DNA of 64,000 nucleotides. It comes from a phage. Positions 695 through 35,539 of this stretch are shown here, one piece after another. The notes under the pieces were generated by a model. The model saw only the letters and a program-made list of their open reading frames with translations, did not search any database and was not told the origin of the DNA. A program made the position numbers and the translations under genes. The stretch's first letter is position 1. Each line of letters starts with the position of its first letter. The stretch lies in assembly GCA_036253495.1 (NCBI GenBank), contig GCA_036253495.1_4125.1; one strand, written 5' to 3'.

Positions 695-722
695 TTGACA
701 ATAGAAAGTAAACGAGTATAAT
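695..722 (+). promoter_or_regulatory. sigma70-like promoter
   Basis: TTGACA 695-700, 16-nt spacer, TATAAT 717-722. Confidence 0.55.
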
Positions 723-754
723 ACTTACATCAACCACTGATAAGGAAACATAAA

Positions 755-1030
755 ATGCGGATTCTACTGACAGCTAACGAAATCGAGCAAGTACTGACTA
801 CTAACCTGGAACAATGGAAACGTGATGCAGATATCCAGGCGGTACAATGGCTTAACGATAAGTTAACGCCAGATGACTTAAGCAAGATTGTTGACCCTCA
901 ATTCTATGAAGATATTCACGACACGGCTTTAAGCGTCGAGGATGTACTTGATAAGCACTACATTGATATTGATTTGCAGGTTTACGGTCGTAAAAACTTT
1001 ATCACTATTCACGACATTTACAATACTTAA
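755..1030 (+). CDS. hypothetical early protein
   Basis: track ORF 91 aa; promoter upstream. Confidence 0.65.
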   Translation: MRILLTANEIEQVLTTNLEQWKRDADIQAVQWLNDKLTPDDLSKIVDPQFYEDIHDTALSVEDVLDKHYIDIDLQVYGRKNFITIHDIYNT

Positions 1031-1033
1031 GTA

Positions 1034-1092
1034 TTGACAAAGTATCTTAGTACTGTATAATAGTTTACATCAAGAGGGGAATGGTTCCCCTC
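1034..1092 (+). promoter_or_regulatory. sigma70-like early promoter + 5' stem-loop
   Basis: TTGACA 1034-1039, TATAAT 1056-1061, hairpin GAGGGGAATGGTTCCCCTC 1074-1092. Confidence 0.7.
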
Positions 1093-1115
1093 CTAACAAA
1101 GAGAGAGAAATAAAA

Positions 1116-1298
1116 ATGGCTAAGTGCACTATCTGTAAGAAAGAAATCGTATTAGTTCCAAGTGCCCGTGAACGTGCCGCTCGGTTCGGTGGCAAAGCGT
1201 CAGACTATACAAAAATGTTTACTGCCCATGCAGATTGCCAGGTAGCAAAACGTTCACAAGAAAGCGTAGAATTAATGCGTAAACTTTCCAAAAAATAA
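1116..1298 (+). CDS. hypothetical small Cys-containing protein
   Basis: track ORF 60 aa; SD GAGAGAGAAA; CxxC..HxxC. Confidence 0.65.
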   Translation: MAKCTICKKEIVLVPSARERAARFGGKASDYTKMFTAHADCQVAKRSQESVELMRKLSKK

Positions 1299-1302
1299 GT
1301 AT

Positions 1303-1363
1303 TGACAAAGTATCTTAGTACTGTATAATAGTTTACATCAAGTGAGGGGAATGGTTCCCCTCC
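1303..1363 (+). promoter_or_regulatory. sigma70-like early promoter + 5' stem-loop
   Basis: TTGACA 1303-1308, TATAAT 1325-1330, hairpin 1345-1363; same cassette as 1034. Confidence 0.7.
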
Positions 1364-1385
1364 TAACTAAAAGAGAGAAATAAAA

Positions 1386-1709
1386 ATGGCTATGATCCTC
1401 ACCCAGAAAGTAGAACTGAAAATTGTAACATCCTTTGACATTAAAGTTAATCGGTGGACTGATTCACACGGCAATACTTACCACTCTTGCTACGTGTCTG
1501 CGTTAATTGGCGACCGCTGGGAGGATTTAGGACATGAAACCTTTACTTACGGTTACGGCACACAAGGCGAATACACGGGCTTGGAGATCATTAAAGAAAC
1601 GGTTATAGGTTTCAACCCGAAAGAAAAAGTTATTCATCAAATAGAAAAAGAGATCAACAAAGAAATAACAGTTCGCTACAACGATGTAAAACGTAAGAAA
1701 GACATGTAA
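1386..1709 (+). CDS. hypothetical early protein
   Basis: track ORF 107 aa; cassette promoter+SD. Confidence 0.7.
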   Translation: MAMILTQKVELKIVTSFDIKVNRWTDSHGNTYHSCYVSALIGDRWEDLGHETFTYGYGTQGEYTGLEIIKETVIGFNPKEKVIHQIEKEINKEITVRYNDVKRKKDM

Positions 1710-1731
1710 TAGAATCCATTTAAAGTACTAT

Positions 1732-1760
1732 TTGACATTGCCCAGATAGTACTTTATAAT
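1732..1760 (+). promoter_or_regulatory. sigma70-like promoter
   Basis: TTGACA 1732-1737, 17-nt spacer, TATAAT 1755-1760. Confidence 0.6.
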
Positions 1761-1795
1761 AGACTCTAGCTTGTAGTACTAACTTAACTAATAGG

Positions 1796-2200
1796 ATGTA
1801 TACCATGATTACTAAATTCTACGCTACCCGTGAAGCTGCCCGTATTGTTGCACGCGAGGAAGGAGCAGCATTTAAAGACATGGGCACGACCGCACCGAAA
1901 GGCCAACGCTGGGCCGTACAGTTCAAAGAAATCTCTGATATTGTGAATTCACCTGAACCAGTACTAACAGCAGCAGAACAGAAGAAAGCTGATGAACTGT
2001 CAGCAGTACTTAACGCTCAAGATGAATTTATCGCGGGTTCTGATATCAAAGTACAGGTAAATGCTAATGCATGGACTCACGCGGATCACCTGGCTAACCT
2101 GAAGCGTCCAAGTGAACTGGTTCGCAACCAGAAAGAGATCCGACACGACCGTAAGGGTAATCGTGTAACAGTATACAGTAAACGCCGCCAGGTTATCTAA
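1796..2200 (+). CDS. hypothetical protein
   Basis: track ORF 134 aa (alt start ATG 1805). Confidence 0.65.
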   Translation: MYTMITKFYATREAARIVAREEGAAFKDMGTTAPKGQRWAVQFKEISDIVNSPEPVLTAAEQKKADELSAVLNAQDEFIAGSDIKVQVNANAWTHADHLANLKRPSELVRNQKEIRHDRKGNRVTVYSKRRQVI

Positions 2201-2222
2201 TAACTTGCAGTACTAACAACAC

Positions 2223-2248
2223 GGCGGGATCAGTTCCCGCCTTTTTTA
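2223..2248 (+). terminator. rho-independent terminator
   Basis: GGCGGGATCAGTTCCCGCC hairpin then TTTTTT. Confidence 0.75.
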
Positions 2249-2262
2249 TAGGATAAACTAAA

Positions 2263-2517
2263 ATGATTAAGGTACAACTATCTAAAGATAATATCTTGCG
2301 GGTACACTATAAAGCCCCTCAGAGAATCATCACAAAGGCCGTACAGCTTGCTAATGAGTTTATTAATGGTAATCTATTGCCCAGGAAGTTAAGCAACGGC
2401 AAACTGCGTGTAATCGATGTAGACACTAACAACAGGATAGTAATCGAGAATACCGGAAAGATAAACCTCTATGAACACCAACAATATAATAAGAAAATAA
2501 AACTAATATCACGTTGA
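2263..2517 (+). CDS. hypothetical protein
   Basis: track ORF 84 aa. Confidence 0.55.
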   Translation: MIKVQLSKDNILRVHYKAPQRIITKAVQLANEFINGNLLPRKLSNGKLRVIDVDTNNRIVIENTGKINLYEHQQYNKKIKLISR

Positions 2518-2542
2518 CAGTACTCAATTGTTTTAGTACTAT
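2514..2542 (+). promoter_or_regulatory. sigma70-like promoter
   Basis: TTGACA 2514-2519, 17-nt spacer, TACTAT 2537-2542. Confidence 0.55.
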
Positions 2543-2570
2543 GTATCTATACCAACACGGGAGAAACAAA

Positions 2571-2789
2571 ATGAAATTATCTAAAATCGAAAAGAAAACT
2601 ATTGATGAAGCAGTTAAGCACGGTTATACCTTTCGTAATGATTCACATTTTACCAATTTTCAACAAGGGTATCGTACTATTAAAAAACTAATTGACAAAG
2701 GTTTATTAGTTAAAGTAGATAACGGTAACGGCGTGGAGTATCAGCCAACACAAGACGCATTATCTTTAAAGAAATATGCAATTATCTAA
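2571..2789 (+). CDS. hypothetical protein (72 aa)
   Basis: track ORF begins at TTG inside promoter; SD GGGAGA + ATG 2571 preferred. Confidence 0.65.
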   Translation: MKLSKIEKKTIDEAVKHGYTFRNDSHFTNFQQGYRTIKKLIDKGLLVKVDNGNGVEYQPTQDALSLKKYAII

Positions 2790-2818
2790 TTGACAGTACT
2801 CAAATGTTTTAGTACTAT
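2790..2818 (+). promoter_or_regulatory. sigma70-like promoter
   Basis: TTGACA 2790-2795, 17-nt spacer, TACTAT 2813-2818; paralogous to 2514 promoter. Confidence 0.55.
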
Positions 2819-2854
2819 ATGTACATACCAACACGGAATAACTGGAGAAACAAA

Positions 2855-3082
2855 ATGATTAATATCTTAGAACGCATCAAAGAAACTACTACGCTGGTGG
2901 ATCTACTCAATGTACTGACTTTTAAAGTAACTCGGTTTAGTACTCCTGAATTTATCAACCTCATTGATAGTAAAGGTGAATACCGCATCACTATTGAAAA
3001 TGGTCGTGCTAATGTATTCAGTACTAAATCAGGTAAAACCGCAATTCATTCTGTAATTGCAAATAAAACTGTTGCAATCTAA
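2855..3082 (+). CDS. hypothetical protein (75 aa)
   Basis: SD GGAGAAA + ATG 2855; track start 2819 lies in promoter. Confidence 0.65.
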   Translation: MINILERIKETTTLVDLLNVLTFKVTRFSTPEFINLIDSKGEYRITIENGRANVFSTKSGKTAIHSVIANKTVAI

Positions 3083-3131
3083 TTAGTACTAACATATAAT
3101 AGTCACATCAAGGCAGGGAATACCTCCCTGC
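3072..3131 (+). promoter_or_regulatory. sigma70-like promoter + 5' stem-loop
   Basis: TTGCAA 3072-3077, TATAAT 3095-3100, hairpin GCAGGGA..TCCCTGC 3113-3131. Confidence 0.6.
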
Positions 3132-3151
3132 TATCTTAAAGAGTAAATGCA

Positions 3152-3736
3152 ATGCGTAATTATACTAAATTCATCCGGGCACTGGCAGAAATGGAAACTA
3201 ACAAAGAGATCCTTACAGCTTGTCGGTTGGCTGGTCTGGAGATCATCGGGGCCGGATCATCCCGTATCGTATTCGCTTTAAATGATCGGTTAGTGATTAA
3301 GGTCGCTAATTGTGACGCTGGCGTAGAACAAAATGAAACAGAATGTAAGGTATGGAATTTTTTAGATTATGACCGCCCTCACCTTAAACAGTACTTTGCT
3401 AAGGTGCATATGCATTTAAGCGATCCTGATAATATGTTTATTGTTATGGATCGTTTGAGTACTGCAAGCAAAGGCAGTGTAAAGCACGTTAACGCTTGCA
3501 ATGAATTAAAGTACAATGTCAAACGTAACACTATTGAACGCCAACACCATTTCGCTGATGCACTACAACACGTTGATGATACCTTATCAACACTAACGAT
3601 AAGAGATATCAGAAAGCAGAACATAGGCCAAGATCGCAATGGCCTGATTAAAGTACTTGATTACGGTTTAACCCGCAATATCTGGAATCAGTACTATAAA
3701 CAACGCGACGTAAAAGCCGTAACTATAACACGATAA
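3152..3736 (+). CDS. putative protein-kinase-like protein (atypical small Ser/Thr kinase fold)
   Basis: IIGAGSSRIVF (Gly-loop), VIKV (Lys), IRDIRKQN (catalytic loop), VLDYG (DFG-like) in kinase order. Confidence 0.45.
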   Translation: MRNYTKFIRALAEMETNKEILTACRLAGLEIIGAGSSRIVFALNDRLVIKVANCDAGVEQNETECKVWNFLDYDRPHLKQYFAKVHMHLSDPDNMFIVMDRLSTASKGSVKHVNACNELKYNVKRNTIERQHHFADALQHVDDTLSTLTIRDIRKQNIGQDRNGLIKVLDYGLTRNIWNQYYKQRDVKAVTITR

Positions 3737-3744
3737 AAAAGATT

Positions 3745-3870
3745 AAAAAAGGGATTGACTCCAGTCAGTCCCTTTGCTATTATATAGTCATTGAGAGATA
3801 ACTCACTGACCCATAGGGTGCATAAGTGTATCTATAATATAAGTATTGTCAGTACTGAAAACTATTTTAA
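3745..3870. repeat. conserved intergenic element, copy 2 of 3
   Basis: same hairpin/promoter-like module and GGGTGCATAAGTGTATCTA box as 441-560; no GCTGGTGG in this copy. Confidence 0.75.
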
Positions 3871-3878
3871 AAAAGTAC

Positions 3879-3940
3879 TTGCATTGTACTTAGAATCAAG
3901 TATAATGTTTTATATCGAGAGGGGGAAACGGTTCTCCCTG
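3879..3940 (+). promoter_or_regulatory. sigma70-like early promoter + 5' stem-loop
   Basis: TTGCAT 3879-3884, TATAAT 3901-3906, hairpin ~3919-3938; identical to 579-606. Confidence 0.7.
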
Positions 3941-3958
3941 GCAATAAGGAATAAAATC

Positions 3959-4180
3959 ATGACTACAATGACTTGCATTTACGCTTCCAATCTTCTGAAT
4001 GATGCGGCCTTTAATGTTGATTCAGAATATCAATGTTATCGGGATGAAAATAAAAAAGTTTTTGTAGTTGATAATAATGGTTTCCATATTGAATTGCAAT
4101 CCGGCTTCACTGGCGTTGATGGTAAATCAGTATGGGGCGTACAGGATGATAAAGGTACATATCATTTTAAACGTAATTAA
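3959..4180 (+). CDS. hypothetical early protein (73 aa)
   Basis: SD AAGGAATAAA + ATG 3959; track start 3791 spans promoter. Confidence 0.65.
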   Translation: MTTMTCIYASNLLNDAAFNVDSEYQCYRDENKKVFVVDNNGFHIELQSGFTGVDGKSVWGVQDDKGTYHFKRN

Positions 4181-4183
4181 GTA

Positions 4184-4242
4184 TTGACAAAGTATCTTAG
4201 TACTGTATAATAGTTTACATCAAGGGGAGAATAGTTCTCCCC
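4184..4242 (+). promoter_or_regulatory. sigma70-like early promoter + 5' stem-loop
   Basis: TTGACA 4184-4189, TATAAT 4206-4211, hairpin GGGGAGAATAGTTCTCCCC 4224-4242. Confidence 0.7.
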
Positions 4243-4263
4243 GATACTAAAAGGAATAAAATC

Positions 4264-4671
4264 ATGACTACTACTAATCAAGCTCGGTCCATCGCCAACG
4301 ATAAAAATCATGCTGCAATGGTCGCTGGTTACATTGAAGCTATGCAATTCAGTACTGTACACAATGAGAACGGCGAATACCTGGAAGATTATGAATTATC
4401 AGAGCAAGCCCATCAAGCGGCAGTGATTGCATGTTCACGTTTCCTTGCTGTACATGGTGAAGATATGGAAACAGTACAAAAACACCATAATCCTGATTAT
4501 ACTTATAATCATGCAGGTCATGATCTCTTTCTTACTCGCGAAGGTCACGGTACTGGCTTTTGGGATCGTGATATCGGTCACTATGACGATGTATTCACTA
4601 AGTACTGCGAAGAAATCAACGTTTGCGATCCCTATGTAGGCGATGATAATCTAATCTATATGGGCGAATAA
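4264..4671 (+). CDS. hypothetical early protein (His/Asp-rich)
   Basis: track ORF 135 aa; cassette promoter + SD AAAAGGAATAAA. Confidence 0.7.
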   Translation: MTTTNQARSIANDKNHAAMVAGYIEAMQFSTVHNENGEYLEDYELSEQAHQAAVIACSRFLAVHGEDMETVQKHHNPDYTYNHAGHDLFLTREGHGTGFWDRDIGHYDDVFTKYCEEINVCDPYVGDDNLIYMGE

Positions 4672-4677
4672 AAGTAC

Positions 4678-4736
4678 TTGACAAAGTATATCAGTACTGT
4701 ATAATAGTTTACATCAAGGGGAGAATAGTTCTCCCC
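4678..4736 (+). promoter_or_regulatory. sigma70-like early promoter + 5' stem-loop
   Basis: TTGACA 4678-4683, TATAAT 4700-4705, hairpin 4718-4736. Confidence 0.7.
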
Positions 4737-4758
4737 ACCAATAAAAGGAAACAACATT

Positions 4759-5031
4759 ATGTCAAGCTACTCCGCTACTATGATCATTAAAGATATGAAC
4801 GGTAATCCTACTTCTGCTGGTGGATCATTTGGAAACATTAACTTAGATGGTCGGTTATCAATGGAATCAGCCATCAATGCAGCGAAAGAAGTTTTTAAGA
4901 ATGAATGTACTGTAAGCAAGCTAGATTATATGGGCTTCGCTATCGAGAAAACTAAACGTTTTGTGGACTACAAAAATCCACTAATGATTGATACTAACCT
5001 GAAAGCTAACGAAGTGGAATACTTATTATGA
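4759..5031 (+). CDS. hypothetical early protein
   Basis: track ORF 90 aa; SD AAAAGGAAAC. Confidence 0.7.
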   Translation: MSSYSATMIIKDMNGNPTSAGGSFGNINLDGRLSMESAINAAKEVFKNECTVSKLDYMGFAIEKTKRFVDYKNPLMIDTNLKANEVEYLL

Positions 5032-5219
5032 CAGTTGAAGAAGTTAAAAAAGTACTGGCAGTACTACGCTATCATAATCATTGCAAGGTGAAGAATGATC
5101 CTGATTATGTTGATTCATCCCTGGAGGAAGACACCTTAAACGCGATAAGCCATATGCAAACATTAGCAAAGCGTATGACCGAAAAGAATAGGCCGGACTA
5201 TATCGGAAATAAAATTTAA
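5028..5219 (+). CDS. hypothetical protein
   Basis: track ORF 63 aa; ATGA overlap with previous. Confidence 0.6.
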   Translation: MTVEEVKKVLAVLRYHNHCKVKNDPDYVDSSLEEDTLNAISHMQTLAKRMTEKNRPDYIGNKI

Positions 5220-5226
5220 AAAGTAC

Positions 5227-5288
5227 TTGCATTGTAGTTAGATTAAAGTATAATGTTTTATATCGAGAGGGGGAAATGGTTTCCCCTC
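5227..5288 (+). promoter_or_regulatory. sigma70-like early promoter + 5' stem-loop
   Basis: TTGCAT 5227-5232, TATAAT 5249-5254, hairpin GAGGGGGAAATGGTTTCCCCTC. Confidence 0.7.
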
Positions 5289-5306
5289 AAGTCCAGGAGA
5301 TACACC

Positions 5307-5570
5307 ATGAACACTATCGAAATCACTATTAATGCTCACGTATACGACAACGTAGTACTGCAAACTACTATGACCGCTAACGATACCAGTACTTTGCGGA
5401 ATACTGTTATAAGTGCTGTATGTGCCGCTATCGGTGATGTATCCCTGGAAAATGCAGAACACATCAACAACGGTTTCACTATGTGCAAACGTGATAACGC
5501 AAAACATATCATCGTAGAAGGTTACGGCGGTGTAGAATATAACCTTTATATGAAAAAAGTACTTGCATAG
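5307..5570 (+). CDS. hypothetical early protein (87 aa)
   Basis: SD AGGAGA + ATG 5307; track start 5253 is in promoter. Confidence 0.65.
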   Translation: MNTIEITINAHVYDNVVLQTTMTANDTSTLRNTVISAVCAAIGDVSLENAEHINNGFTMCKRDNAKHIIVEGYGGVEYNLYMKKVLA

Positions 5571-5619
5571 TAACTAAAACAAAGTATAATGTTTTGCATA
5601 GGGGGAGATATCCTCCCCC
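5563..5619 (+). promoter_or_regulatory. sigma70-like early promoter + 5' stem-loop
   Basis: TTGCAT 5563-5568, TATAAT 5585-5590, hairpin GGGGGAGATATCCTCCCCC 5601-5619. Confidence 0.7.
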
Positions 5620-5638
5620 ACTAATAAGGAGTACTACG

Positions 5639-5863
5639 ATGGCTAATCATGATGAACTGATTCGGGAAGTAGCTAACCTGGCGGCAGAAAAGAAATCATT
5701 TGATTCTATCTATAACACCGCTCACCGTGATTCAGTACTGGCATGTAATCAGGATCAAAAAGATGAACTGATCGCAACCTATCATGAAGCATGGAAGTAT
5801 TACCGTCAATGGGAGAAAGAAGAAAAAGCATCAACCATAAGAGGATTAAATAATCTAGTATAA
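5639..5863 (+). CDS. hypothetical early protein (74 aa)
   Basis: SD TAAGGAG + ATG 5639; track start 5594 is in hairpin. Confidence 0.65.
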   Translation: MANHDELIREVANLAAEKKSFDSIYNTAHRDSVLACNQDQKDELIATYHEAWKYYRQWEKEEKASTIRGLNNLV

Positions 5864-5915
5864 CAATAAAAGGGGATGATAATATCCCCTTAATAATTTC
5901 TATAATAGGTTAACA

Positions 5916-6182
5916 ATGAAAAAGAAAACAACATATCGCTATAATAAAAATTATCAATCCGTTGTATTAGATCACTCTATGCTCCCGCTCGTTGTCCCTG
6001 CCGTTGGTGTAGTCTATCAATCCATATACTGGTCAAGGAAACAACAAAAGTACTTAAAAGGCCCACTAGCACGTTATGAGGGTAACGGTGTATGGTCCGA
6101 TCCGTTACATCCAATCACTACGCGTTATATTGAATATTTTCCTTATTGTGACTACATTGAAATACATCCTAAATTTAATTGA
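5916..6182 (+). CDS. hypothetical protein, paralog of 6263-6520
   Basis: track ORF 88 aa; shared LP..P..G..Y....W......Y.....Y.GNG.W.DP..PI pattern. Confidence 0.65.
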   Translation: MKKKTTYRYNKNYQSVVLDHSMLPLVVPAVGVVYQSIYWSRKQQKYLKGPLARYEGNGVWSDPLHPITTRYIEYFPYCDYIEIHPKFN

Positions 6183-6187
6183 TAGTA

Positions 6188-6241
6188 TTGACAGTACTAA
6201 CTGATAGTGTATAATGTTTTGCATAGGGGGAATACTCCCCC
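6188..6241 (+). promoter_or_regulatory. sigma70-like early promoter + 5' stem-loop
   Basis: TTGACA 6188-6193, TATAAT 6210-6215, hairpin GGGGGAATACTCCCCC 6226-6241. Confidence 0.7.
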
Positions 6242-6262
6242 AATATTAAAAGGGGAATCATC

Positions 6263-6520
6263 ATGGAACAATTCACACAATATCGGGTAAATCCTCAAGC
6301 TATGGCCTACGTAGAAGACCATAAAACGTTACCAGTACTGCAACCAGTTAAAGGCCGTATCTATCGTGGCCTTGCATGGAATACGGCCCAGGATGGATAT
6401 AAAACCGTTGCCGTGGGGATGTATTGCGGGAATGGTGAATGGTTTGATCCTAACAATCCGATTGCACTTGACAGTACTGAAAAAATGAAATGGGCCGACT
6501 ATATCGAGGATATCTCATAA
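6263..6520 (+). CDS. hypothetical protein, paralog of 5916-6182
   Basis: track ORF 85 aa; cassette promoter. Confidence 0.7.
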   Translation: MEQFTQYRVNPQAMAYVEDHKTLPVLQPVKGRIYRGLAWNTAQDGYKTVAVGMYCGNGEWFDPNNPIALDSTEKMKWADYIEDIS

Positions 6521-6526
6521 AACTAT

Positions 6527-6588
6527 TTGACAGTACTATCATATAGTGTATAATGTTTTACATAGAGCGGGGGAATAGTTCTCCCGCC
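6527..6588 (+). promoter_or_regulatory. sigma70-like early promoter + 5' stem-loop
   Basis: TTGACA 6527-6532, TATAAT 6549-6554, hairpin ~6565-6588. Confidence 0.7.
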
Positions 6589-26179: not shown

Positions 26180-26716
26180 ATGTTAGATTATGACAGAATA
26201 GAGAAAGATGATTGGGACGGTACTCACCATTTAAAGGTTGACACTTTTGAACACGCTCGCAGTACTGCTCAAGATCTTATGCAAATCCATGAGTTCATTT
26301 GTAATAACAGAGAGACTTCTATTTGGACAAAATCTGACAGATTTATTGATTCAAGTTATGATTACTTCAGTATTCGTTCAAATCATCTAGATGATGACGG
26401 GTACAGTGTTGATATGTTCAATATCAACAAATTTAATGACCCTGAATATGATCCAAAATACAGCGGTGGATTTTTAAGTTATTCCCCTAACTATGACAGA
26501 ATAAAGTTCTTTTACGTAGATACTGACATTGTTCTTCCATTTATCGAAGAAGAACTTACAGAAGAACTGTTCTTTCAGATGAGTACTGTTGACGACCCGT
26601 ACATAGTTGGTGTACAATTCATGTTCTCTTGGCTTAAACAGAATAACTTCCCTCCTTTTTATGTTGACCTTACTTTTTACGATCTAATTTGGAATTTTGT
26701 TCGTAATCCATCTTGA
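26180..26716 (+). CDS. FQxS-family protein
   Basis: track ORF; motif TEELFFQMSTVDD. Confidence 0.7.
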   Translation: MLDYDRIEKDDWDGTHHLKVDTFEHARSTAQDLMQIHEFICNNRETSIWTKSDRFIDSSYDYFSIRSNHLDDDGYSVDMFNINKFNDPEYDPKYSGGFLSYSPNYDRIKFFYVDTDIVLPFIEEELTEELFFQMSTVDDPYIVGVQFMFSWLKQNNFPPFYVDLTFYDLIWNFVRNPS

Positions 26717-30578: not shown

Positions 30579-31211
30579 ATGAGTACAAAAAGAAAACCAA
30601 TTTCAAAGTACGTTTTTCATCGCCTAGAATATAAGCACTGCATTGCGTATGCACGAGCCTTAACGGACATATTACCACGTCTGAAAGATGATAAGTTCCT
30701 TGAATGTTATGACATGCGTTTTCATAACAATGTTCTTGAGTACATAGAATCAGATGATAGTGAGTTGAATGAAGTATGGCTTGATTTCAGTCCTAGTGGT
30801 TTAGATAAAAATAGAGTTGGGAACTTGGGTCTATTTTATACGCACTGCTTGAACTTCGATTTGTCAGATAAAACATTAGTACTGGATAGTAATGAGGTAC
30901 TTAGATTGAACCTCAATGTTATGGATTATTCAGAAGAATCATTCTTTCAAAATAGTTTAATATATGAACCGAATGATTTATTATATACTATTGTTTTCCC
31001 ATATCTACATGAGCACCTTAAAGGTACTACAGTTCAAAGAGCAGACATTACCTTTAGTTTAGTAAATTTATTCAAGTACAGTGACGTATTCAAAGAAATA
31101 TGTATTGAAGGCGGTTACTTCGATGACCTTGCTGATTTGAATAACATGGCGTTTGAAAATGATAATTATTTTAACGATACCTATATAGGCGGTTCAAGGA
31201 TAATGAAATGA
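30579..31211 (+). CDS. FQxS-family protein
   Basis: track ORF; motif SEESFFQNSLIYE. Confidence 0.7.
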   Translation: MSTKRKPISKYVFHRLEYKHCIAYARALTDILPRLKDDKFLECYDMRFHNNVLEYIESDDSELNEVWLDFSPSGLDKNRVGNLGLFYTHCLNFDLSDKTLVLDSNEVLRLNLNVMDYSEESFFQNSLIYEPNDLLYTIVFPYLHEHLKGTTVQRADITFSLVNLFKYSDVFKEICIEGGYFDDLADLNNMAFENDNYFNDTYIGGSRIMK

Positions 31212-31759
31212 GTTTACCATTAACAATAAACCCAGTACTAAAAGATCTATCTAAAGTTATTATGAACTTTTTTCCTATTGTACTACAAGATATAAAACCT
31301 ATATCAAATCTTGGTTCATGTTATATTCGACACAGTAATAATAAAAACGGTACTATAGGTACTTTGTACATTAGTGATAGTTCATTGTTTCTTTTGCACC
31401 CTGAGTTATCAGATGAAGAAATTGCAGATGGTTGTTCGGAGGCACAGAATCGTGTACTCACCCGTTATCCATATGTGTACATAAGCAGCATTAAACATAA
31501 AAATCTTGCTAATAACTTTTGCCAATGCAATCACGGTGATAACTTAATAGATTTAAATGTTGACGATGGGGTGCTTTTCCAGTACAGTACTCTATATGAT
31601 CAGTTAACAATGGATATCATTGAGTTGGATAAGTTAGTGCGTGATTACATCCCTGATGGTTTCTATCTTACAATGGATCTTAATGTACTGAATTCCGTAA
31701 TGGAACAAGGCACTCTACCAAACATTCTGAGAGACTTACGAGCATTTAAAAGACCCTGA
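31208..31759 (+). CDS. FQxS-family protein
   Basis: track ORF; motif DGVLFQYSTLYD. Confidence 0.7.
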   Translation: MSLPLTINPVLKDLSKVIMNFFPIVLQDIKPISNLGSCYIRHSNNKNGTIGTLYISDSSLFLLHPELSDEEIADGCSEAQNRVLTRYPYVYISSIKHKNLANNFCQCNHGDNLIDLNVDDGVLFQYSTLYDQLTMDIIELDKLVRDYIPDGFYLTMDLNVLNSVMEQGTLPNILRDLRAFKRP

Positions 31760-31772
31760 TGGGTCTTTTTTC
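31751..31772 (+). terminator. rho-independent terminator
   Basis: AGACCCTGATGGGTCT hairpin (contains stop codon) then TTTTTT. Confidence 0.7.
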
Positions 31773-31781
31773 GTTTATAGG

Positions 31782-31810
31782 TTGACATTAGTAATGTAGA
31801 GTGTTAGAAT
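31782..31810 (+). promoter_or_regulatory. sigma70-like promoter of the MCP-like operon
   Basis: TTGACA 31782-31787, 17-nt spacer, TAGAAT 31805-31810. Confidence 0.6.
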
Positions 31811-31841
31811 ATTGTAACCTATTTAAAAGAGAGCGTATTTT

Positions 31842-32390
31842 ATGGATAGCATTGTAAATATTATTGAATGCATGATTTATATTTTTAAAAACAGTCCTGA
31901 TAATAAGACTGTTAATTTTGAGTTAGGTGAATTAAATATCAACCCAAAAGAATCTCCATCAGTATATTCTAATATTACATTGTTCATTAGTGGTTTAGGT
32001 TATGTCGTAAAGATCATTAATGCGACACAACGTAGACAAGAATACAAGATGGAAATTCTACGCGGAGATAGTGAAATTCGTCTATATAATGTATCACGCT
32101 ACACTAAGATACTGGTAAAACATTCTTATGAAGATGACGAGAAGTTAGCTGTAGCTAAAATTGATTCAAACACTTTCAAAGAACAAATGTTCATGGCTGC
32201 TATGTCATATGATCAATTAACTTATAATAAGCTAGAAATGGGTTATAAATTACTTAGGTTATTAGAAGATCATTATGAAATTACAATTATGGACAAATTG
32301 CTTACCAAAAGCCAAGAGGAACTAGAGAAAATGCATTTGTTATTAAAAAAATATATTGATGATAATTTAAATTATGGAGAAGTACGTTGA
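31842..32390 (+). CDS. hypothetical protein, degenerate FQxS-family member
   Basis: track ORF; SD AAAAGAGAG; degenerate motif [13 protein letters not shown]; first gene of operon. Confidence 0.65.
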
Positions 32391-33799
32391 AAAGTAATTT
32401 AGAAAATATACGCAAAAAAGCCGATAATTTAGTACTATGTTGTATAGGGGCTTTATTCGCTGTTACTTTAGTTTCCGGTGTTGTTCATGGTAGTTTTATT
32501 ATTGCACTAATCGGTGCAGTTTTATTATTAGTAATGCTAACTCCTTTACTATTTGTTGAAAGTAATGCGTTCACTCGAACGTTGTTAAGTATAAATGTGA
32601 TGTGCTGGAGTGCGTTACTAATACATCTTGGCTTAGGGATGGTGGAATGGCACTTTACAGTTTTTGTCTTTTTAAGTTTATTGATTGTATGGCGTGACTG
32701 GCGTTGTGTATTAGCAGGTTCAGTACTGATTGCTATACATCATTTATTATTTGGATTGTTACAGGGTGCTGGAATTCCAATATTATTCGTGTTTTCTTTT
32801 CACCATATTTCGTTATGGCACATTATAGAGCACGCAATATATGTAGTAGTACAGGCAATAGTTCTGATGTACGTAGCGTACATTATGGAGAAAGATGCAA
32901 ATGAAGCAGATGAAATTCAACGAATTGCAAGATCAGTGAATTCTGAAGACGGCAATATTACTTTAGAAATACAAAATAATCATTTCAACTCCGAATTTGC
33001 ACAGACTTTTAGTAAAACAATATCAGCTATGCGTGAGGCAATTGAACAAGTACAAATTACAGTTCAGTCAATGAAAAGCAACTCCTATCATCTCGAAAGT
33101 AAAAGTAATGATTTAGCTTTCAGAACTGAAACACAAGGACAGGCACTTACTCAAATCGCTGCTGCTATGGAAGAATTAAGTGCTACATCTGCAAATACAT
33201 CTGATAACTCCAATACTGCAAAAAGTATGGTTAAAACTACAAAAGAATCCAGTACTAATGCAATTGAAAGTATCAATAATTGCAAAGAGCAGATGGATAG
33301 AATTAAAGAAGATTCTAATGCTATAGTTGCTATACTCAAAAATATAGAAACTATTGCTTTCCAGACTAATATTCTTTCTTTAAATGCCAGTATTGAAGCT
33401 GCTAAAGCTGGTGAACATGGACGTGGATTCTCTGTTGTTGCACAGGAAGTTCGTAACTTAGCAATGAAATGTGATGCATGTAGTAAAGAAATTAAAGAAA
33501 TCGTTGATAACTCCGTAAAAAACAACAACCAAGGAATAGAACAAATCAACGAAACTGCAAGTGATATTGATTCTATTGTAAAAAATGTTGATTCACTCTT
33601 GCAGTTCATTGATGATTTAGCTATAATGGCTGAACAACAAAGCATTGCAATCCTTCAGGTTACTGAGAGTGTTAATATGATGGACCGTTCAGTACAGCAA
33701 AATGCGGAGCATGTAAAGGACACAATGATGATGGTAGACAATCAACAGTCTGAAGTACATGCTTTACAAAAAGCCACTTCGATTTTTAACGTGAAATAA
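32387..33799 (+). CDS. methyl-accepting chemotaxis protein-like transducer (multi-TM N-terminus + MCP signalling domain)
   Basis: SD GGAGA + TTG 32387 (alt ATG 32534); 5-6 hydrophobic helices; canonical MCP core [32 protein letters not shown]. Confidence 0.85.
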
Positions 33800-33806
33800 T
33801 TTTAAA

Positions 33807-33833
33807 GCCAGGGTATTGACTCTGGCTTTTTTC
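33807..33833 (+). terminator. rho-independent terminator
   Basis: GCCAGGGTATTGACTCTGGC hairpin then TTTTTT. Confidence 0.75.
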
Positions 33834-33872
33834 TTTGCTATTATTTTAATATTATTTAACCGAGGATATCAT

Positions 33873-34427
33873 ATGGACAATTACCTATTAATCTTACAAA
33901 TTTACAACGAACTGGGAAAACTTCTTGAAACGTGTAATTCACAGGGACGTAAATTAAGAATCGGTTTCGATTATGAAATTGAATACACAGGAGAGGGTAT
34001 TGCAACGCAGCAGATGTTCACAGAAGAAAATAAAACTATTCTGTGCGTTTACCCACATGAAGGTGATGAGGAAGACTGTGTTGTTGATTTTTCATATGAC
34101 AGTTCTTGGGCTTTTATTTCACGTAATCCTCGAATGAAAGAGGCAGTGGATTACAAAGAACCATCATATGATCCTATTGCGTTGTTCAGTACTGAGAATT
34201 TAGAAGAACAAAATTTCCAGAGTTCTGTAACTCACGATAAATTAATCACTGATGCACTTACGATTGAAGCTTTAGCACGTAACTATAAATTTGATTTCAA
34301 TCTCAATAATTATTATATGTCATATAGTGCAACAGCATCATTACTCACTGATGATCAATTAGTAGTATTACTCAAGGACTTGAAAAACTACGCACAAACG
34401 AGAAAAGAACATGAAAACACTAATTGA
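33873..34427 (+). CDS. FQxS-family protein
   Basis: SD GAGGA + ATG 33873 (track start 33816 lies in terminator); motif EEQNFQSSVTHD. Confidence 0.7.
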   Translation: MDNYLLILQIYNELGKLLETCNSQGRKLRIGFDYEIEYTGEGIATQQMFTEENKTILCVYPHEGDEEDCVVDFSYDSSWAFISRNPRMKEAVDYKEPSYDPIALFSTENLEEQNFQSSVTHDKLITDALTIEALARNYKFDFNLNNYYMSYSATASLLTDDQLVVLLKDLKNYAQTRKEHENTN

Positions 34428-34983
34428 TATTTTTAAAGTACTAGAAGAACTTACTCATAAGTTAGATGAACAAAAAAGAACTGAGAATATTTTTCATTAC
34501 TTCAACAATCCAATGTACCGATTAGTTTTTGATTGCAGTACTTTGTATCGTTATGCTAATATCCAAATACAACACTGCATTCAACATAAAACCAAAAATA
34601 TATGGTCAGTTGATGCTTCTTATGTGGCATCAGGCAGAGAGAGTAAATTTTTGGGTTCAGTTTCTGATTGTAGTCTTACTGTGAATAAACTCAAAGAAAC
34701 TAACGAATTAATCGTCAGAAATTTGTACGATGATTATTATGATGATGAAGAATATCTTCATATTGCACCTGAGCTACAAAATCCAGAAGAGCGAGAAGCA
34801 TATCTTTTCCAGTTGTCGTTGCTCCCAGGTTATGATATGATAGCTAAAGCTGATTTTGTATATCAACTATCAATGCAACTTGGTAGTGGGGAGTGTTCTG
34901 CTTTCAATAATCTATACAATGAAAGTACTGAAACACAAGAAGAATTATTGGAGGAATTAAATGCATTTCTCAAATCTTTATAA
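34411..34983 (+). CDS. FQxS-family protein
   Basis: track ORF; motif EAYLFQLSLLPG. Confidence 0.7.
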   Translation: MKTLIDIFKVLEELTHKLDEQKRTENIFHYFNNPMYRLVFDCSTLYRYANIQIQHCIQHKTKNIWSVDASYVASGRESKFLGSVSDCSLTVNKLKETNELIVRNLYDDYYDDEEYLHIAPELQNPEEREAYLFQLSLLPGYDMIAKADFVYQLSMQLGSGECSAFNNLYNESTETQEELLEELNAFLKSL

Positions 34984-34987
34984 TTAC

Positions 34988-35539
34988 ATGTCCGAAGAGT
35001 ATCAATATTACACTAAGATGGTTTTGAAAGTGAATGCTATTCTTAATAGTGATTTATGTAAAACTAAAAAGACATTTAATCTCCCATATATGCGTTTGGC
35101 GATTACTAAAGACCAGGAAGGTATGTATGATCATGCAGTAGTTTCGATGAATGATCTACGTGTCTTTCTGATAATTAAGTACAATAAAGAAGATTTAACC
35201 AACAACGATGGGTACATTAACTACGATTATATTATTGGAGGAAATGCTGAAGTTCCAGGGACAAGTGAATTTGCAGGGATTGTTATTTCAGGTAAAAAAA
35301 TTCCAAAGATTAATCTTAACAGTAGTACTATAGAAGAAGAACTATTCCAGTTAAGTACTATGTACAGTACTAACGAATTGGATTTATTACTTTTCAGTAC
35401 AATCGTCAATCATGAACTGGATAAGAAAGACAAATACTGTCCATTGCAACAAATTGTTCATCGTTTCAAACGTAGTGAATTTAAAAGAATTCATGAAGGT
35501 CTGGACAGTCTTATTAACAATACTGGGGATTTCTCATGA
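34988..35539 (+). CDS. FQxS-family protein
   Basis: ATG 34988 just after previous stop (track 34961); motif EEELFQLSTMYS. Confidence 0.65.
   Translation: MSEEYQYYTKMVLKVNAILNSDLCKTKKTFNLPYMRLAITKDQEGMYDHAVVSMNDLRVFLIIKYNKEDLTNNDGYINYDYIIGGNAEVPGTSEFAGIVISGKKIPKINLNSSTIEEELFQLSTMYSTNELDLLLFSTIVNHELDKKDKYCPLQQIVHRFKRSEFKRIHEGLDSLINNTGDFS

Follow-up and report, generated by a model that had tools for sequence, protein, structure and literature searches.

The methyl-accepting chemotaxis proteins (MCPs) Tsr and Tar of Escherichia coli (1QU7, 3ZX6, 6S1K) have a periplasmic four-helix ligand domain and two transmembrane (TM) helices. Here, we describe an MCP gene from a phage, located at 32387-33799 on the + strand of a 64,000-nucleotide stretch of contig GCA_036253495.1_4125.1 (the window), whose 470-aa product has six TM helices and no such domain. 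The phage protein resembles Tsr and Tar in a gapless alignment of its residues 225-469, a tip with 51% identity and one EExxA[ST] motif, whereas the hinge glycines and R388 of the E. coli receptors are replaced in it, methylation sites 1 and 4 are lost, the NWETF sequence is absent and a HAMP domain is not recognised by Pfam. Bacterial six-TM MCPs share its architecture over 99% of the length together with all invariant sensor residues; the phage copy differs from them in being AT-rich and in having lost the glycine hinge. At about even confidence, we favour the reading that the gene product works as a receptor within host CheA/CheW arrays, altering the taxis of the infected cell via a sensor that the host lacks.

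The aerotaxis protein HtrVIII of Halobacterium salinarum likewise combines six N-terminal TM helices with an MCP signalling domain. As summarised in PMC13401364, citing Brooun 1998, its sensing site has been proposed to lie within the membrane helices, which were likened to the haem sites of cytochrome c oxidase. The likeness of HtrVIII to the phage protein is one of description and not of sequence, and the haem-site resemblance belongs to HtrVIII, not to the phage protein. E. coli Aer (phmmer of the phage MCP versus the Aer structure, E = 8e-26) likewise belongs to the 36H length class, has neither a periplasmic ligand domain nor the C-terminal pentapeptide, and works in mixed arrays. Aer senses via a cytoplasmic FAD-PAS domain with a two-helix membrane anchor, whereas a PAS domain is missing from the phage protein, whose conserved residues are located within the membrane bundle. 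Phage-encoded interference with the host motility apparatus is also represented by Tip, Aqs1 and Zip of Pseudomonas aeruginosa phages, which bind PilB or PilZ and block type IV pili (PMC11656802). These are small proteins of temperate phages acting in superinfection exclusion, whereas the gene described here specifies a full flagellar-chemotaxis receptor in a lytic jumbo phage.

Signalling domain and six-helix sensor module

The C-terminal half of the protein, in which an earlier note made from the DNA letters had recognised an MCP signalling core, matched Pfam MCPsignal (PF00015) at residues 281-434 with 127.3 bits (cutoff 34.6; E = 7.1e-37), and its best match among solved structures was Tsr 6s1k (phmmer, E = 7.5e-36). 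The NCBIfam models for Tar, Tsr, Tap and the citrate transducer aligned over residues 150-469 with scores far below their cutoffs. Residues 246-469 corresponded to residues 1-224 of 1qu7 without a gap, and residues 225-469 paired with Tsr 273-517, the numbering differing by 48 throughout, with 34% identity. The phage protein is a complete MCP and, with no indels across the kinase-control module in comparison with Tsr, falls into the same length class as the host receptors, 36H (Alexander & Zhulin); a check of the heptad class had been proposed in the earlier note. Receptors of equal length share arrays, and those of different length segregate (PMC6628036).

The kinase-control hairpin (residues 225-470, 33059..33796, + strand), delimited by the gapless alignment to Tsr, comprises the methylation helices, the flexible bundle and the tip. 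In the AlphaFold model of the whole protein (pLDDT 85), helices 203-340 and 342-464 formed a single long hairpin turning at 340-342. At the tip (residues 303-382, 33293-33532, + strand, mapped onto Tsr), 41 of the 80 residues (51%) were identical to Tsr, EVRNLA included, and identity to members of the six-TM family amounted to 50-58%; the flexible bundle beside it showed 3-20% identity only. Tsr F373, I377, L380, N381, E385, F396, V398 and E402, which we take to be trimer-contact positions, were unchanged in the phage tip, the trimer-contact positions overall being kept or conservatively substituted. Between the membrane part and the hairpin lies a HAMP-like linker (residues 171-224, 32897..33058, + strand), assigned from the AlphaFold secondary structure and weak alignments: the TM6 helix runs to residue 184 and is followed by an 18-aa connector and a second helix starting at 203, and the linker aligned weakly to the Tsr HAMP region and, from position 195, to the Tar profile.

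The N-terminal sensor module (residues 1-170, 32387..32896, + strand), delimited by its AlphaFold model (pLDDT 91, pTM 0.87) and by invariant columns, was predicted to contain six TM helices at residues 4-33, 37-56, 61-81, 86-102, 105-127 and 143-172, with a longest periplasmic loop of 15 aa. This bears out the description of five to six hydrophobic helices devoid of a periplasmic sensor domain in the earlier note. By the positive-inside rule both termini are probably cytoplasmic, since the N-terminus and the loops after TM2 and TM4 are basic. Foldseek with the six-TM module returned nothing at E<1. To the six-TM modules of class III adenylyl cyclases (AC9 6R3Q, AC5 8SL3) and of the P. aeruginosa diguanylate cyclase ImcA (8WCN), identity was only 9-13%, so that any resemblance would be one of fold alone, and a profile search of PDB sequences with the module gave no match.

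Full-length homologues with 99% query coverage and 37-40% identity (E down to 7e-95) were found in Enterobacter, Pseudocitrobacter, Siccibacter and Pantoea, and further ones with about 30% identity in Cupriavidus, Paraburkholderia and others. A profile of the module alone, which recovered the phage protein at 1.7e-54, gave matches with E≤1e-3 in 5,831 cluster representatives; with a limit of E≤1e-10, the number was 3,238. The module was N-terminal in 150/150 listed matches, whose lengths were mostly around 470-520 aa, and all nine sampled family members with any Pfam match were MCPs, some longer ones with a recognisable HAMP or HAMP_2 domain. Only rarely does the module precede HisKA; the few histidine kinases that carry it (e.g. 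P0129) retain the core residues E87, H89, F90, F93, H119 and H149. Pfam contained no family for the six-TM part at E≤10, neither for the phage protein nor for three bacterial homologues, and members in Enterobacter soli (P0006), Pseudocitrobacter (P0009) and Cupriavidus (P0020) are annotated just as 'methyl-accepting chemotaxis protein'. The module defines a large unnamed bacterial sensor family that has no Pfam model and deserves a name. A search of 5,426 complete E. coli genomes at the DNA level did not find it.

Across the family G84, H89, F90, F93, A116, H119, Q126 and H149 were invariant and E87, R103 and H118 near-invariant; all are present in the phage protein, where H89 is encoded at 32651-32653, H118/H119 at 32738-32743 and H149 at 32831-32833, E87, Q126 and R103 likewise being among the sensor codons. 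In the predicted helices, H89, H119, H149, E87 and Q126 were placed in the outer-leaflet half of TM4, TM5 and TM6. The clustering of these His, Glu and Gln positions suggests a putative metal, haem or proton site.

No conserved neighbours were found for the bacterial homologues, which are orphan chromosomal genes. The E. soli homologue (locus L002, 6001-7452), the closest among bacteria, lies directly 3' of exbB-exbD in a metC-exbBD region (L002, 4592-7452), the Cupriavidus homologue adjoins tctC, and the Paraburkholderia homologue adjoins a gene for an MHYT-GGDEF-EAL protein, which is another sensor with histidines in TM helices.

Phage copies, rarity and selection

The MCP region of the window was 98.7-99% identical to Escherichia phage A4 (ON286972.1; Asteriusvirus, 355 kb), isolated on E. 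coli LF82. The A4 counterpart of the MCP gene, A4_379, has the same start and length and already bears the GenBank label 'methyl-accepting chemotaxis protein'. This label, the loss of the glycine hinge and the large unnamed sensor family were missing from the earlier note; the GenBank label itself, MCPs as a class and phage-borne host-like genes were already known. The paper on A4 assigns this phage to strictly lytic lineages, reports that it fails to lyse its host in broth and follows an atypical infection strategy, and makes no mention of chemotaxis (PMC9355613). The window phage is a close relative of A4 and not A4 itself, with only 46% of the first 20 kb of the window covered by A4 (at 96.5%). 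Other Asteriusviruses cover 48-57% of these 20 kb at about 87%, and the window phage is mosaic relative to A4. A third copy was present on a Logan contig with gene order, start and length as in the window. The ORF postulated in the earlier note is thus real and undisrupted. For the flanks of the window, matches with 83-87% identity were found in some 50-100 further Asteriusvirus-like genomes, whereas A4 alone matched the central 10 kb.

Among 50,697 phage records (INPHARED), A4 was the only one with a full-length copy. MCP genes are rare in bona fide phage genomes, in line with the rarity of MCP signalling domains that the earlier note had asserted for virulent phages. Most other matches in phage records were bacterial contigs filed as phage, or short fragments. 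Bacterial contaminants in INPHARED included Salmonella whole-genome shotgun contigs of ~500 kb and records of 1-4 kb named 'Salmonella phage S.Kent 1-2-1', 'Escherichia phage ECO95' and 'Listeria phage LM'; such records with MCP or cheW genes inflate the apparent counts of phage chemotaxis genes. IMG/VR contained no close relative of the phage MCP. In 246 of its contigs there were relatives, but these matched just the C-terminal domain, and in 44 of the 80 best loci the match was situated within 3 kb of a contig end. A cheW gene was found neither in A4 nor in any complete phage genome.

Two further phage records contain complete MCPs whose sensors are of other types. Vibrio phage vB_VmeM-Yong XC31 encodes a 610-aa protein with dCache_1-HAMP-MCPsignal architecture (L086, 1187-3019), and 'Microcystis phage MaAM05' a 508-aa protein with protoglobin-MCPsignal architecture (L087, 1796-3322), both annotated as hypothetical. 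The gene described here shares with these, and with the MCP that a 2026 preprint reports, along with CheR and CheY, for predicted ammonia-oxidiser phages (Nitrosospira), its occurrence in a phage genome; the sensors of Yong XC31 and MaAM05 differ from it. Because of these different sensors (dCache_1 with HAMP; protoglobin), the Yong XC31 and MaAM05 genes appear to be independent captures. Both genomes exceed 270 kb, and the GC content of either MCP gene is close to that of its flanks. The MaAM05 locus adjoins thiL and ispD, and the phage status of this record is possibly doubtful. A literature search yielded no paper discussing an A4-type MCP gene and no functional study of any phage MCP.

Across the three phage copies, 24 codons of the MCP gene varied synonymously and six by amino acid, and pairwise pN/pS was 0.04-0.08; between the window and A4, there were 22 synonymous and three nonsynonymous differences. 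In the six-TM part, 10 variable codons were synonymous and none nonsynonymous. The GC content of the gene (34.4%; GC3 25%) was that of the window (34.1%), compared with 57% for the Enterobacter homologue. The gene is under strong purifying selection. The low pN/pS, the phage-like GC content and the conserved promoter and terminators (see below) argue that it is functional for the phage. The opposite view, that it is a passenger or decaying gene, picked up recently and by chance with host DNA, or else a product of misassembly, might draw on its restriction to a single lineage and a hypervariable region, on the many 'viral' MCP matches in IMG/VR that are host DNA at contig ends, and on the several 'phage' records that are bacterial contigs. 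It is contradicted by an intact ORF, promoter and terminator in three independent assemblies, by the selection just described, by a phage base composition 23 GC points under that of the nearest bacterial homologue and by an identity of at most 37-40% to any bacterial protein. We regard this explanation as effectively refuted by these sequence comparisons.

Altered signalling elements and proposed role

The hinge glycines of Tsr, G340/G341/G439, were replaced by A292/I293/A391 in 3/3 phage copies (A292-I293 encoded at 33260-33265 and A391 at 33557-33559, + strand, mapped onto Tsr). Among 20 aligned bacterial relatives, glycine occupied the first, second and third of these positions in 20/20, 14/20 and 18/20 sequences, respectively. 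Tsr R388 corresponded to K340. The five Tsr methylation positions (taken from PMC6606802) mapped to ET, TQ, EE, KD and QQ, i.e., one canonical EE within EExxAT (E262-E263-L-S-A-T), two positions that carry Q, and two that are lost (sites 1 and 4). The C-terminal NWETF sequence, the tether for CheR and CheB, was absent from the phage protein sequence. With hinge and methylation sites gone in the phage copy specifically, its output may be shifted or adapt poorly.

In Tsr arrays studied by cryo-tomography, the kinase-OFF state showed a pronounced bend at the hinge and the ON state straighter receptors, and hinge replacements in Tsr impair or abolish chemotaxis (PMC6606802). Because of this, the output of the hinge-less receptor might be biased, the direction not being readable from the sequence. 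The main rival to an array receptor that responds to its own stimulus builds on these changes: the protein would enter host arrays or titrate their components and act mainly as a receptor with locked output or as a dominant-negative one, causing constant tumbling or smooth swimming, from which the phage might gain by saving energy, by staying among hosts or by ending taxis-driven escape. The replacement of all three hinge residues and of R388, the loss of sites 1 and 4 together with the CheR/CheB tether, and a flexible bundle that diverged while the tip was kept speak for such a jammed receptor. A sensor would, however, be needless for it, yet all sensor invariants are kept, and the variable codons of the six-TM part are exclusively synonymous. 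Moreover, sequence does not allow one to predict how A, I and A at the hinge would affect output, and, as may be derived from PMC6628036, packing may demand less bending of a receptor that lacks a periplasmic domain. We consider this explanation rather unlikely, though a serious competitor.

The preferred reading, that of a working receptor in host arrays, would comprise the following steps. An ancestor of the A4 lineage captured a whole MCP gene from the enterobacterial six-helix-sensor family, and the gene came to lie behind a pre-existing sigma-70-type promoter, translationally coupled to a homologue of gp169 from phage PBECO4. Given this promoter and coupling, the protein would probably be produced early by host RNA polymerase. 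It would then reside in the inner membrane, its N- and C-terminus on the cytoplasmic side, and form mixed trimers of dimers with host receptors, binding host CheW and CheA; entry into mixed arrays is suggested by its 36H length, the same as that of Tsr, Tar, Trg, Tap and Aer, and by a tip close to those of the host. A changed CheA output would in turn change the swimming of the infected cell. The stimulus would be a signal in the membrane or facing the periplasm, with metal, haem/redox state and protons as candidates, for which E. coli would have no receptor of this type. That the protein could plug into host CheW/CheA had been put forward in the earlier note; the idea is strengthened by the 36H length, the 51% tip identity, the kept or conservatively substituted trimer contacts and the lack of a phage cheW.

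The well-conserved tip also bears on a role independent of CheA, in which the protein would be a polar or membrane sensor or scaffold and would use the tip for oligomerisation only, e.g., in marking the pole, in sensing the state of the envelope or energy supply for lysis timing, or in excluding other phages. The atypical strategy reported for A4, which did not lyse its host in broth (PMC9355613), and the co-translation with a conserved phage gene of no assigned function fit such a role. It is at odds with the findings that the best-conserved part of the protein is precisely the tip for CheA/CheW and trimer contacts, that the 36H length is exact to the residue, and that the bacterial module is joined almost only to MCP signalling domains. 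PADLOC gave just weak coiled-coil matches (DruC, JetC); a link to a defence system was rejected, as these matches are coiled-coil noise. On balance, a CheA-independent role seems improbable.

Several observations weigh against a working array receptor. In the hinge-less protein, with K340 in place of R388, signalling may be abnormal or packing into arrays poor; of five methylation positions two are gone, and there is no NWETF tether. Neither the phage protein nor any of three bacterial homologues matched Pfam HAMP at E≤10. From the TTG start, translation is expected to be modest. Since the gene is confined to one Asteriusvirus lineage and occurs neither in PBECO4 nor in other records, it is dispensable for this type of phage. 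Finally, the turnover of arrays in the host is slow, and infection may cause host gene expression to break down.

Locus history and significance

The MCP gene is the second of a two-gene unit on the + strand. It starts with TTG, shares 4 nt (TTGA) with the stop of the upstream gene and is preceded by a ribosome-binding site GGAG at 32376..32379, read from the sequence 7 nt 5' of the start and within the end of the upstream gene. The unit is headed by a sigma-70-type promoter at 31782..31810 (TTGACA-17-TAGAAT with TG extension), which matches 11/12 consensus positions and varies at one spacer nucleotide among the three phage copies; its first gene, at 31842..32390, codes for 182 aa. An intrinsic terminator at 33804..33829 (11-bp stem followed by TTTTTT; −15.5 kcal/mol, z = −4.4 versus shuffled sequence), identical in 3/3 phage copies, ends the unit. 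The promoter and strong terminator that the earlier note had placed here are correct in coordinates and motifs. Another intrinsic terminator, AAAAGACCC-TGAT-GGGTCTTTT followed by a T run (31748..31769, + strand; −12.5 kcal/mol, z = −4.1 versus shuffled sequence), closes the preceding unit. A promoter-like element for the next gene (TTGACT-17-TATTAT with TG extension, 10/12 positions; 33816..33844, + strand) overlaps the stem of the downstream terminator and is followed by a 184-aa member of the FQxS family at 33873..34427 (+ strand; family HMM, E = 1e-19).

By an iterated HMM search, about 43 ORFs of the FQxS family were found on the + strand from 12958 to 42153 (E 1e-11 to 1e-30), so the two-gene unit does form an island inside a paralog array, as the earlier note had it. 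These paralogs are arranged in tandem, have lengths of roughly 110-210 aa and share an invariant F-Q-x-S; BLASTP connects just 13 of them, and they are spread over many small PHROGs. PBECO4 has the FQxS family at the syntenic place (28/47 coding sequences match). The gene at 31842-32390 had been taken for a degenerate member of this family, an assignment that had to be withdrawn: hmmsearch gave no match at E<10, the hhalign probability was 0.05, and both the F and the Q that are invariant in 21 aligned paralogs are missing from it. Instead, it proved to be a homologue of PBECO4 gp169 (phmmer, 7.6e-11 in a database of 47 sequences), matched phrog_36809 (E = 1e-9), a PHROG without assigned function, and differed by 0-1 amino acids among the three phage copies. 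It had no homologue beyond this lineage in a large protein search and no match to a solved structure.

Synteny with PBECO4 extends to both sides, where the genes at 30579-31211 and 31208-31759 correspond to gp171 and gp170, and those at 34411-34983 and 34961-35539 to gp168 and gp167. PBECO4 has the same terminator hairpin and a TTTACA-17-TATAAT promoter at the equivalent place 5' of gp169, a gap of only 29 nt between gp169 and gp168, and no MCP gene at the syntenic site. As PBECO4 possesses terminator, promoter and gp169 without the MCP gene, the latter landed behind a pre-existing promoter and first gene, and a joint acquisition of the gene at 31842-32390 with the MCP gene was rejected. The operon proposed in the earlier note holds as a promoter-to-terminator unit; its promoter and first gene do not belong exclusively to the MCP gene. 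The paralog at 33873-34427 has no PBECO4 counterpart, though the genes on both sides match; its arrival, or its duplication, seems to have accompanied that of the MCP segment. In comparison with PBECO4, the extra segment of the A4 lineage consists of the MCP gene, its terminator, the following promoter and this paralog.

As to the origin of the gene, an enterobacterial six-TM clade was closest to the phage MCP overall and in most sub-domains, which argues for a capture of the gene as a whole; the alternative of a chimera, in which a bacterial sensor had been fused to a signalling domain from the host, was rejected on the same grounds. By these comparisons, the six-TM bacterial family is the evident source of the phage gene.

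The + strand of the window contained 46 distinct sigma-70-like sites (47 listings) with at least 10/12 matches, 11 of them perfect. The 11 perfect promoters (TTGACA-16/17-TATAAT) lie at 695-6560 and at 26713, 47798 and 55418 (+ strand); most have TG just 5' of the −10 hexamer, and eight are found within the first 6.5 kb before very short ORFs, so that this part looks like a dense early-promoter region. The promoter at 31782-31810 is an ordinary phage promoter of the region, which fits a reading in which host RNA polymerase transcribes the unit early. A scan of the window for tRNA and Rfam features found none.

Remodelling of host metabolism and inactivation of pili by phages are established; a literature search found no study showing a phage-supplied sensory receptor for flagellar chemotaxis. 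With E. coli as host, for which receptor-less strains, CheY-CheZ fluorescence resonance energy transfer and cryo-tomography of arrays are available, a change in navigation is directly testable. The phage copy also constitutes a natural experiment, both on a receptor without glycine hinge and on what the six-helix module with its histidine site detects. If the gene merely jams or has no measurable effect, it would be a curiosity of a hypervariable phage region. Tentatively, and with clear doubt, we envisage that a lytic jumbo phage may steer its host by placing its own receptor, altered in hinge and adaptation, into the array, so that the virocell would move or stop on a membrane cue that uninfected E. 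coli cannot sense. If this is true, the independent captures of MCP genes by giant phages would make the manipulation of taxis a recurrent strategy of jumbo phages.

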